Under the pieces are notes generated by a model. The model was not told the DNA's origin. It did no database searches and saw only the letters and a list, made by a program, of their open reading frames with translations. Below are positions 176 to 61,800 of a stretch of 64,000 bases of DNA, piece after piece; the first letter of the stretch is position 1, and every line of letters starts with the position of its first letter. The translations under genes were made by a program, and so were the position numbers. The DNA comes from Hormiphora californensis. Its lineage: Eukaryota; Animalia; Ctenophora. The DNA lies in contig CM035350.1 in NCBI GenBank assembly GCA_020137815.1, forward strand, positions 9,300,001 through 9,364,000, read 5' to 3'.

Positions 176-3100
176 CAACGGATGGTGAAGGCAGCAGAGG
201 AAGGTTGGGAGTACTCCCGACTATTCACCACCAAGTTCCACCTCAAGCAGAAGACCATGGATATGGTCCGGAGGCGAAGGTGGCACAGGAAGATGGTGGC
301 TGATAACCCGGATAGGGATGCCATCTTCATCATTGACCCCAGTAGTGATGCTATAGAGGTACGTGTTCAGTGTGTGTGGCTTTGTGTCACGTGTTCCCCT
401 CAGACAGGGACGTGATACATATGCGTGTTTAATGAATTCTCGGCGATATATTTTAATGCTTTATATTTTTTGTTGCTAAAAGTCAAAATGTCAGTTAAAT
501 GTTCATCACAATGATAGCTCCTCTCTCTTTTATGTCTCACTCACATTACAGACGCCAAAGAAAGGTGCAGGCGGTTCCCGCTTTGGTAGGCCGGATGTAA
601 GTTACGGAAAAATTTCGAGCGCTCAAAATGCTGATCCCACTTTAGATCATCATAAAATGATTCAACAATCGTGATTCAAAACTCCATCTCTCTCTCTTAA
701 ATCCTGTCACCATCTTGCTCTGATTCACGCTATATTCTCAAGCAGATTTGATCATCATCAAATGATCGCTTACCGGGTTTTGCAGCTATAAGACAGATCA
801 TCACCCTTTCGATTTTCCTGCCAATAAACACAATCAATGCACCTGTCAGAACATTGGCCTGACAACAATGCACCACTATGTAGCTCCAAATCATCACACC
901 AACTCTGTAAATACTAAATGTCCCCATTGTCCTGCAGTCTGCAGCTGCTGCTGCAAATAGAACCCGAGGGAAGAGTGGTGACGATGACGGTACACTCCAA
1001 CGAACTATGATTACTCCTACTGTCTTTCTGACTTATAAAGGTATCAGGGCTGCTTCACAGGACGCAATATAATGGACACCCCCCACACTTCACACTTCAC
1101 ACATCCTGGTTTTTGTTACCATGGAGACATCATTGCGTCCTGGGGAGCGGCCCGCCCGGTAAGTATTCCCCGCTCTCACACTGCACCTCACTATCTAGAG
1201 CAAGGAGGAGAAGAGCGATAGGAAGGATAGCAGCCCGGGAGAGCTTCCCTTCCTCCCGAAGGTCCAGACACCCCGCATGTTCATTACTTTCACAGGTAGT
1301 GAGATATCGTGAATTGTGTAGCTTGCTGCCCTTCTCGCTCCCTCCCTACCTGGAACACGTCGAGTCTTGTTGTTGCTATGGTAACTAGTTGGTAGCCATG
1401 TTGATGTCGTCTCCAGTTGCTATGGTAACGTTGATAACCGTATTGATGTCGTCTCCAGATTTTTATATCGCGATATGTGTGATCAGTGATGTCAATTGAT
1501 GTCCAGAGTAACATCTCTGCTCAGTGTTGTAATTATATTTGGCCCGTTCCATAATCCTCTATTATGCTTCCCCGCCACCGCCGCTGCGTGAAAATCTAAC
1601 TAACTGCTGCTGCTTTTGATTCAGCTCCCCTCCGTGTTACCCGCGTTTTTGTTGTACAGAAATTAGTAATAATAATCGTGGTGTGCCTCATTAAACGACA
1701 GATACAACATCTGTATCTTTGTATCGTTCGTCTACCAGAGATAGTTTCGTGAGTCTCTTTCTCAGGAACCGACCGAATCAGGGAATACTGGTCCCTGATT
1801 GGCTGATAACCAGTCACGTGACCTAAACAACGAGTTCTGATTGGTTGTTTACTTGTTTCGGTCGGTTCCTGCTCTTTCTCTACATACCACTCGTCGTGTT
1901 GTTCCCTCTCTGATGATATCCCTCCATTATACCGATCTGTTTATAGTGATACGTTTCCCCGAGAGATCTGCTGAACATTGAACTTGTGGTGACTGCTCTT
2001 TTACTTGGCTACAATTGGAGACCCCACCATATCACCCCACCATCACCATATATTTTCACAAACTTCCCCTCCCCAGCTCCCCCGTTCGGCGAATAGTAAT
2101 CCGAAAACCTGATATTTTTCTCCCTTTTATCTGCTAACTCCCTCAACAGTCAACTCCCCCTTCCTATCACGACCCCCAGTGTCACTAACCTCCCCGTTTC
2201 CCCTAGAACCGCACACCTACCAGCTCCCTCAATAACCTCCCCTCTTCCCCCTAGAACCGCACACCTACCAGCTCCCTTACTAACCTCCCCCCTTCCCCCT
2301 AGAACCGCACACCAACCAACTCCCTCACTAACCTCCCCTCTTCCCCCTAGAACCGCACACCTACCAACTCCCTCACTAACCTCCCCCCTTCCCCCTAGAA
2401 CCGCACACCTACCAACTCCCTCACTAACCTCTCCTCTTCCCTAGAACCGCACACCTACCAGCTACGAGCCTACATCTACCAAGCTCGAGATCTGTTCAGT
2501 GCTGATCCCTCCGGTCTCTCTGATCCGTATGCTCGGGTTGTCTTCTCTCGACAGAGCCAGAGGACTAAGGTGCTCAATGAGACCCTCTGCCCCACCTGGG
2601 ACCAGACTCTTGTGTTTGAGGAGGTAGAGTTCTATGGTAACCCCACTATGTTGGCTGAGAGTCCACCCATTGTGGTAGTTGAACTCTTCGATTACGATAC
2701 CGTGGTACGTTGAGGTGGTTGTTAGGGTGGTATGTTGTTGGGGTGGTTACTAGGCAGGTTGCTAGGGTGGTATGTTGTTGAGATGGTTGTTAGGTAGGTT
2801 GTTAGGGTCTTTATTTAAAGGGATTCAGGGCGTGTTGAATTGTATTACACCCCTCTCCCTCCTTCCAGGGAAGTGACTTCTTGGGACGAGCTATTGCCAC
2901 GCCCATTGTGAAGCTGGGTGGAGAGCACCAGATGGCCAAACTCAACTGGCACCCCATCACCCGGGGTGGAGAACCAGCGGGAGAGCTCCTTGGAGCATTT
3001 GAGCTGTATCTGAATGAGGGGGCAGAGTTACCCTTCATGCCCCCTACCCGCAACGACGTCTACCAGGTTCCCAGCGGTATCAGACCTGTTATGCAGCTCA

Positions 3101-61001: not shown

Positions 61002-61800
61002 TCACTCTCCAAACAGTTCTAGACTGTAGACAATTAGCCGGCCATAGAAATCTGTTAATTGGGTGAAACACAGTGACAGGGAGTCTGTTGCTGTCATGGT
61101 AACCGGGAACTCTTGAACCACATTTGAGTCAGCAGGGTGAATTGTACATAGGATCTCCCCTGAGGTGGTGTCCTTGAGGTCGCACTGCCGGGCTGAGAAC
61201 CCACCCTGAAACTGTGTTAAATTGTGTTAGACAGCTGTGTTAGGAACTTGTGTTAGGAAACTGCGTTAGACAGCTGTGTTAGGTCTAGTAACTTGTGTTA
61301 GGAAACTGCGTTAGACAACTGTGTTAGGTCTAGTAACTTGAGTAAGGAAACTGCGTTAGACAGCTGTGTTAGGTCTAGGAAGTTGTGTTAGGAAACTGCG
61401 TTAAATTGTGTTAGGACTGTGGGATAGGAGTTTGTGCTAGAAAACTATAGGTGAATGTTAGAAAATAGAAATTAAACAACTGTGAATGTCTAAGAAGTGA
61501 CAGGATATGTATTAAATTACAGCACGCTAAACCGACATACCGTTAGCATGCAGACAGACCCCAGACACTACTATATTCCATGCATGTTATGCAGATATCT
61601 GTTCATTATACCTGAATTTTGATCTTGGATATGTTGGTTTGTTGTTCAAGTTTCAGAGATACCTGCTGCTTCTCGCCCCCGTCTGAACTCCATGCTGTGT
61701 CAGGACACCCGTCAAACATGAACTTCCGGCCGTGCTCCTTATTGTTCCTTTGGAGGACAGAGCTCACTGAGCTGGATACTACCTTTACCGCTGCTGCCAT
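61002..61800 (-). CDS. NR2C2AP: Nuclear receptor 2C2-associated protein (TRA16), 2 exons
   Basis: Exons 61800-61612 and 61211-61002: VSSVLQRNNKEHGRKFMFDG..TAWSSDGG...IQ|FQGGF...HPADSNVVQEF...TDFYGRLIVYSLELFGE*. Confidence 0.9.
61208..61415 (-). repeat. ~45-bp repeat carrying copies of the NR2C2AP exon-2 acceptor and CTAAC branch-like motifs
   Basis: GAAACTG(C/T)GTTA at ~61208, 61257, 61302, 61347, 61393 (minus strand TAAC(A/G)CAG|TTTC). Confidence 0.75.

Follow-up and report, generated by a model that had tools for sequence, protein, structure and literature searches.

Genes and boundary-spanning arrays in the window

The stretch analysed here (the window) is 64,000 nt of the genome of the ctenophore Hormiphora californensis (GenBank assembly GCA_020137815.1, contig CM035350.1, positions 9,300,001 to 9,364,000, forward strand). 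It contains minisatellite arrays whose units hold a gene boundary, which may be a splice donor, a splice acceptor, an acceptor together with a start codon or, in one case, a stop codon. One copy in each of these arrays is the working boundary, and the others are referred to below as unused copies or decoys. All counts and boundary tests refer to this single window.

Hand-placed gene models comprise 14 genes with 98 exons and 84 introns (median intron 180 nt). The models are based on GT-AG dinucleotides and open frames, except for the splice of NDUFB8 intron 1, which is seen in RNA samples X7 and X8. Pfam matches support ferlin (C2, a domain found in the exon at the 2182-2460 array), a nested intronless matrix metalloproteinase, HEXIM, an RZ-finger gene, GREB1 and GNL2 (NGP1NT domain). 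AP5B1 is identified via a homologue, P0001, which carries AP5B1_C, and the Pept_tRNA_hydro match of PTRH1 falls below the cut-off. The names NDUFB8 and NR2C2AP are labels from an earlier reading of this DNA made from sequence only; neither has a Pfam match above the cut-off, and neither name is confirmed. Reads came from X1 (short reads, possibly the source sample and thus not independent confirmation), X5 (short reads from a second individual) and the two RNA samples; a further run, X9, aligned to low-complexity parts only.

The window includes noisy homopolymer-rich stretches at 4780-5980, 39900-44300 and 51300-52700, frame-breaking indels in exons near 34030, 51060 and 52110, and, around 42550-42650, two N gaps accompanied by what looks like an inverted duplication. 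Together these look like signs of an unpolished long-read assembly.

The sequence-only reading had listed 13 arrays straddling gene boundaries. All 13 were compared with exon coordinates, Tandem Repeats Finder (TRF) output and a decoy-site scan (Table 1). Eight are true arrays that hold a working boundary, seven at splice sites or starts and one at a stop codon; three are small or marginal, and two are not as described. The RNF213-like pair at 32124/32271, taken for a tandem array at a junction, consists of 40-nt direct repeats flanking a miniature inverted-repeat transposable element (MITE). The supposed NR2C2AP acceptor array at 61208-61415 is wholly intronic, and the decoy scan found no decoy of the acceptor there. 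The eight confirmed arrays, found among 196 annotated boundaries, have units of 35-114 nt with matches of 89-100% (TRF). The GREB1 acceptor unit at 45586-46109 is composite, joining a 66-nt acceptor piece to some 48 nt matching the tail of the preceding intron (about 45010-45072). Because the assembly has noisy stretches and indel errors, the identical donor pair at 56614 may be false. The decoy scan passed no decoy in the diverged array behind the ferlin donor.

The claim that the exon-proximal copy is the one that keeps the reading frame (ORF) holds throughout: splicing at any of the 26 cis decoys would lead to a frameshift or to an in-frame stop codon. Of the nine decoy ATGs in the NDUFB8-like array, two share the frame of the gene with no stop in between, and starting there would lengthen the protein by 24 and 49 residues.

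Table 1. Repeat arrays and related repeats at or near gene boundaries in the window
Feature	Positions	Strand	Repeat	Boundary, decoys and remarks
Ferlin acceptor array	2182..2460	+	48 nt x5.9	5 decoys, all running into an in-frame TAA (TRF, decoy scan); working acceptor before 2445
Diverged array from ferlin donor 2704	2696..2808	+	40 nt	About 3 exonic nt shared; marginal; absent from the earlier list
Array upstream of GNL2	20615..20831	.	36 nt x6	No junction; high-copy counter-example
NDUFB8-like trans-splice acceptor and ATG array	21970..22701	-	72-75 nt x9.9	9 decoys, all with both AG and ATG; working copy ends at 22009
HEXIM acceptor and ATG array	23850..23960	-	35 nt x3	4 exonic nt only; decoy ATGs out of frame
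AP5B1 small acceptor pair	27541..27590	+	29 nt apart	About 17 matching nt, below TRF; working acceptor before 27583; marginal
AP5B1 stop-codon array	28196..28966	+	64 nt x12	Unit is last 21 codons plus TGA
Donor-holding direct repeat, RNF213-like gene (RZ finger)	32125..32311	+	40 nt	Flanks ~107-nt MITE at 32164-32271; not tandem
GREB1-like acceptor array	45586..46109	+	114 nt x4.6	4 decoys
GREB1-like donor array	53137..53419	+	37-39 nt x7.4	Working donor after 53150; 6 decoys
GREB1-like donor array	54561..55009	+	53-58 nt x8.1	Working donor after 54598; 7 decoys
GREB1-like donor pair	56614..56695	+	40 nt x2	Copies 100% identical
PTRH1 donor pair	60140..60202	-	46 nt apart	15 matching nt (3 exonic, 12 intronic); marginal
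PTRH1 start-acceptor repeat	60346..60519	-	49-68 nt x3	Common part is AG plus 2 exonic nt; marginal
Intronic array	61208..61415	-	13/45 nt	Abuts NR2C2AP-like acceptor at 61205, does not contain it

Silent changes in unused copies

Each substitution in the exon-derived part of the unused copies was classed in the frame of the working exon. With unit ends locally trimmed, 13 of 15 distinct variants are synonymous, against 4.1 expected (P=1.5e-6). Fixed lengths with neither gaps nor trimming give 15 synonymous variants of 27 (7.4 expected, P=0.0017), a set that includes eight extra changes due to a 2-nt insertion shifting two GREB1 copies. Hand curation gives 16 of 21 (P=7e-5), or 12 of 17 when NDUFB8 is left out (P=0.002), both measured against a flat one third. 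The intron-derived parts of the units contain both substitutions and indels. Neutral decay cannot prefer silent sites, so the synonymous letters were probably filtered while they stood in a working exon.

In the AP5B1 stop-codon array all five variants are synonymous, and these five sites produce seven unit types, with the two common variants occurring in all four combinations. Three homologues (from five matches in a HMMER library search) can be aligned across the unit, and their ends lie no more than three residues from the stop; P0004 and P0005 were left out of this alignment, the latter being an unrelated Ig-repeat protein, and the last exon has no match among longer proteins. On this evidence copy 1 is coding, and the stop precedes copies 2-12. 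Use of the copies is therefore ruled out as the cause of the silent bias, since copies 2-12 cannot be translated and yet all five variants are silent. Variants are distributed among copies as a mosaic, without order by distance.

The NDUFB8-like array in transcripts and reads

The sequence-only reading had described three arrays as lying at acceptor or start regions. At NDUFB8 the boundary is a spliced-leader trans-splice acceptor. An X7 RNA contig (depth 28.6) has a loose end behind 22011 that reads ATTTG plus AG directly before the NDUFB8 exon. Only five of these letters are non-genomic, and they match the 3' end of the ctenophore spliced leader, described as a conserved AATTTGAG motif in the available text of PMC8527503; the RNA thus carries a ctenophore-type leader end joined at its genomic AG. 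Contigs overlapping the leader-bearing one continue into the unique part of the exon. The start acceptors of HEXIM and PTRH1, where the DNA has an AG directly before or near the ATG, are likely to be trans-splice acceptors as well. Sequence upstream of the AG appears in none of the seven RNA contigs at NDUFB8, at low depth and in animals whose arrays may differ; gaps in RNA cover were rejected as evidence that decoys are not used. Joining of the leader to copy 2 or 3 would extend the N-terminus in frame.

The possibility that the arrays are assembly artefacts is partly answered by the short reads. When a single NDUFB8 unit serves as reference, contigs from X1 and X5 run from 22025 back to 21955 and 21969, and the tandem joint is therefore present in short-read data. 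Support at the stop-codon array is indirect: the joint of copies 1 and 2 is covered by X1 and X5 contigs (summed depth 1300 and 3421 at 28263), and one X5 contig has a 4-nt deletion at this joint. The summed X5 contig depth on the NDUFB8 unit (21966-22046) is more than 100 times that of the flank, compared with a few times in X1, and 113 X5 contigs are placed there versus 23 from X1. Contig depth is no copy number, and these values do no more than hint at a far larger array in X5.

Silent diversity in this species is very high. Of the 23 differences listed among X1, X5, X7 and X8 within the unique part of NDUFB8 exon 1, every one is synonymous; they fall on 22 sites over some 85 codons. This share of silent variable sites (0.26 per codon) is close to that in the stop-array units (0.24, 5 of 21 codons). 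A heterozygosity of 3.2% is given for a related ctenophore in the available text of PMC8527503.

One variant connects an unused copy to a working allele in another animal. A T at 21960 occurs in the window only in the unused copy at 22229, and is the letter of the exon-anchored X5 contig (833.6 of 833.6); the T in the unused copy is thus shown to be a working allele of the second individual. The same T is found in the X1 tandem-joint contig. The leader-bearing X7 contig differs from the working copy at two positions over 21961-22011. When all ten copies were offered it was placed on the copy ending at 22379, the sole copy with exactly two differences there, and it would appear to match that copy. 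The copies at 22229 and 22377 extend 15-20 nt deeper into the exon than the other copies do, which is what re-templating from a working exon would be expected to produce.

Enrichment over chance and array growth

The null model of ORF-preserving placements proposed in the sequence-only reading was run within the window. Arrays were collapsed to one unit, and units of the same length were placed at ORF-preserving positions, with nine array selections, four versions of the null, and the noisy stretches 4780-5980, 39900-44300 and 51300-51900 left out. At periods of at least 20, eight of 21 arrays hold a boundary, against 5.1 expected (P=0.10, 0.07-0.16 across the four nulls); at periods of at least 30 the count is eight of 17 against 4.7 (P=0.06, 0.03-0.10), and over all periods of at least 9 it is nine of 51 against 6.6 (P=0.20). 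With two marginal arrays taken as junction arrays the figure is ten of 17 (4.8 expected, P=0.007), and dropping two composite arrays gives eight of 15 (3.9 expected, P=0.018). The junction excess is thus modest, about 1.6- to 2-fold, and varies with the definition. Arrays away from junctions had been omitted from the earlier list, and 13 of the 21 non-coding arrays with periods of at least 20 hold no boundary.

The strongest split, made post hoc, is by copy number at periods of at least 30. Arrays of at least three copies hold a boundary in seven of nine cases (2.5 expected, P=0.002), whereas arrays with fewer than three do so in one of eight (2.1 expected, in a small sample). Young two-copy duplications therefore show no excess at junctions in this sample, and among arrays with periods of 9-19 only one of 30 holds a boundary (1.6 expected). 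The same difference is seen when no threshold is applied: the eight junction arrays have a median of 6.65 copies versus 2.2 in the nine others (P=0.010), and an identity of 92 versus 86 (P=0.003), with similar periods (P=0.5). The excess sits in expansion and not in initiation. Junctions draw no first duplications here, and junction-holding duplications grow and stay alike.

Comparison with known systems

Boundary-spanning minisatellites are already known as a repeat class. According to the accessible parts of PMC3087553 and PMC3902484, the amphioxus 'mirages' occur in Adh3, the globins BflGb6 and BflGb9, troponin C and PGBD5. They are minisatellite-like tandem copies of 5' or 3' exon-intron boundaries, 10-160 nt long and 81-100% alike, whose cryptic sites leave splicing normal and whose copy number varies between haplotypes; a route to intron gain has been proposed, and mechanism and origin are called unclear (PMC3087553). 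Eight of the 13 arrays examined here are likewise head-to-tail repeats of a unit holding exon, intron and splice dinucleotide (with a stop codon in place of a splice site in one), and their unit lengths and identities fall within the mirage range. The idea in the sequence-only reading that such arrays are intermediates of intron gain parallels the published proposal, and both it and the silence of reiterated donors are already in print (PMC1557585, PMC3087553). The present arrays differ from mirages in belonging to another phylum, in numbering eight among 196 boundaries and in including a leader acceptor with ATG and a stop codon. The synonymous bias of the copies is not mentioned for mirages in the accessible text.

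Human variable number tandem repeats (VNTRs) provide a second parallel. In F7 intervening sequence (IVS) 7 (37 nt), CBS IVS13, LMNB2 (100 nt), PDGF (81 nt) and 6-16, the first monomer spans an exon-intron boundary, and a donor is followed by 4-25 pseudo-sites, of which the most upstream is used and at times the next one or two (PMC1557585, accessible portions). The reiterated donors with trailing pseudo-sites described here are similar. The human cases are scattered single loci, and those in the text consulted are all donors; the acceptor arrays in this window need the most downstream copy, which 5'-to-3' scanning leaves unexplained. The human minisatellites MS32, MS205 and MS31A share with the present arrays interspersed variant units and inferred exchange between alleles (PMC3356730, as far as available); unlike these arrays, they have no coding-constrained copy, and hence no filter that would leave a synonymous signature. 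The RNA end at NDUFB8 agrees with ctenophore leader trans-splicing, for which reiterated leader acceptors are not mentioned in the available text of PMC8527503. A literature search at the level of listings, covering few subscription papers, returned no report of such arrays in ctenophores, of synonymous copy bias or of reiterated leader acceptors.

Four things are added here: a leader acceptor and ATG array with RNA evidence, a stop-codon array, a case of allele sharing at the level of reads, and the finding that the excess lies in expansion.

Mechanism and alternatives

The reading favoured here, at a probability of roughly 0.6, is that these arrays are minisatellites of the mirage type, shaped by survivorship and, in a species as variable as this one, by exchange between alleles that has the conserved exon edge as its anchor. 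Exchange with working alleles was absent from the sequence-only reading, and the synonymous-biased variation points to it. A small duplication would probably arise by break repair or template switching at microhomologies, as the templated spacer at 45586 and the repeat flanking the MITE suggest; both GREB1 donor-array joints fall in a frequent palindrome-like motif (see below). Purifying selection would keep the duplication only if a working copy remains, a step for which the frame part is seen in all 26 cis decoys and the choice of splice site is presumed.

The exon edge of the homologue could then pair out of register with an unused copy, and duplications holding a junction would expand oftener than intronic ones. 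Pairing at the exon edge would be favoured because in very diverse species exons match between alleles and introns match less. The observed basis for this step is the difference in copy number and identity between junction arrays and the others. Selection would remove products that place a damaged copy in the working position, and exchange would import selection-filtered sequence, which would explain why unused copies carry silent variants of working alleles; that pattern is seen directly, and the sharing of alleles is shown at one site and likely at two. Donor choice probably follows a most-upstream rule, as shown for F7 in the accessible part of PMC1557585, and acceptor choice must favour the last copy, with exon definition or decay of wrong products assumed. 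Conversion-like exchange is reported for human minisatellites in what is available of PMC3356730.

Several points weigh against this reading. The same source cites the opinion that human minisatellites change mainly by routes other than unequal crossover, and no phased haplotypes or crossovers are seen. Five variants are non-synonymous, four of them in the two GREB1 donor arrays. If two marginal arrays are reclassified, the copy-number and identity tests weaken to P=0.03 and 0.04; the splits are post hoc in a single 64-kb window. Junction units are richer in G+C, which may by itself favour expansion. Read checks cover NDUFB8 directly and the AP5B1 stop array indirectly, and the ferlin and GREB1 arrays are known from an assembly with noisy stretches. 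Allele sharing was examined at three sites of one array. A third letter, G, occurs at 21960 in RNA, and since three letters at one site show that such sites change often, the shared T could be a recurrence.

Among the alternatives, plain survivorship with slippage within one chromosome, in which G+C-rich units expand more readily (exon edges having the higher G+C) and alleles exchange nothing, is unlikely. It is consistent with the weak enrichment at periods of at least 20 (P=0.10), with the absence of enrichment over periods of at least 9 (P=0.20), and with the G+C of the junction units and the median intron of 180 nt. Survivorship, one of two branches put forward in the sequence-only reading, accounts for about half of the junction arrays (4-5 expected among 8-10); the excess lies in arrays of high copy number and identity. 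The version with slippage alone is already strained by the synonymous excess (13 of 15), and leaves unexplained the five of five behind the stop, the three letters at one silent site and the deeper-reaching copies.

The synonymous bias would also be predicted if copies always derived from the working copy of the same chromosome and recorded its successive silent substitutions as an archive of time, or if old arrays had been re-paired with other alleles by crossovers in exons. One letter common to eight of the nine unused NDUFB8 copies, and different from the working copy, fits such an account. It is nevertheless distinctly improbable, given that the variants are mosaic without order by distance and at least one equals a present-day working allele elsewhere. 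Because several donors are needed, it becomes a slower form of the favoured exchange between alleles.

The other branch of the sequence-only reading, mutation aimed at exon boundaries (R-loops or spliceosome-linked slippage, to which nucleosome-edge breaks may be added) as the start of duplications, is very unlikely. In its favour are the count of ten of 17 with marginal arrays included (P=0.007) and a MITE lying 18 nt behind a donor that is repeated. The window holds no sign of spliceosome-linked targeting: two-copy duplications (one of eight) and short periods (one of 30) show no enrichment at junctions, and the boundaries affected include donors, acceptors, leader acceptors and a stop codon, the last having no link to the spliceosome. 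Finally, it is highly improbable that the copies are kept by use (as alternative sites, N-terminal variants or regulated decay), as the two in-frame NDUFB8 ATGs might suggest, or that the arrays are assembly artefacts, as the noisy stretches, indel errors and identical 56614 pair might: all 26 cis decoys break the frame, copies behind a stop cannot code, none of seven low-depth RNA contigs has sequence upstream of the AG, and tandem joints occur in short-read contigs of two samples.

A broader proposal, which we hold tentatively and at slightly less than even odds, is that alleles in compact, hyper-variable genomes can pair reliably only at the conserved exon edge, which thereby drives the growth of junction minisatellites. 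The unused copies would then be a renewed archive of the working alleles of the population, at splice sites, leader acceptors and stop codons alike, and acceptor and ATG units could yield in-frame N-terminal variants. If this is true, the archive supplies the missing mechanism for amphioxus mirages, and the arrays are a natural test bed for the choice of the most downstream among many identical acceptors. The silent-change signature offers a test for exchange between alleles that needs sequence only. The arrays are also natural reporters of how splice sites and leader acceptors are chosen in the presence of up to nine nearly identical decoys, and in ctenophore genomes they will lead gene prediction and read mapping astray.

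Other elements in the window

The palindrome-like motif GTTRCYATGG has 37 matches in the window, against 0.49 expected. These form 14 clusters (for example at 6488, 13596, 47263, 48944, 49753, 50291 and 50925), of which ten begin 21-90 nt behind a donor, and the motif builds several short arrays. It resembles an RFX X-box, and could be an intronic splicing element. The MITE is about 107 nt long with terminal inverted repeats, and is present in three copies (1763-1872, 32164-32271 and 54314-54421); the middle copy, flanked by the donor-holding repeat, lacks the last bases of one end.

Two ferlin exons, at 938-1019 and 1199-1295 (+), have the same phase and similar ends (TPTVFLTYK and TPRMFITFT), and are likely to be mutually exclusive. 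The intronless matrix metalloproteinase gene (15270-17189, -) sits inside an intron of an unnamed gene (12418-18114) that runs on the opposite strand. HEXIM, the NDUFB8-like gene and GNL2 (18284-23853, -) follow one another in the same orientation, separated by short spacers and each with an AG immediately ahead of its ATG, an apparently operon-like layout, as for a leader-splicing animal. Between HEXIM and AP5B1, positions 24440-25370 hold a very high-copy element with inverted arms and TTAGGG runs, at which the summed contig depth is thousands of times that of the flanks.

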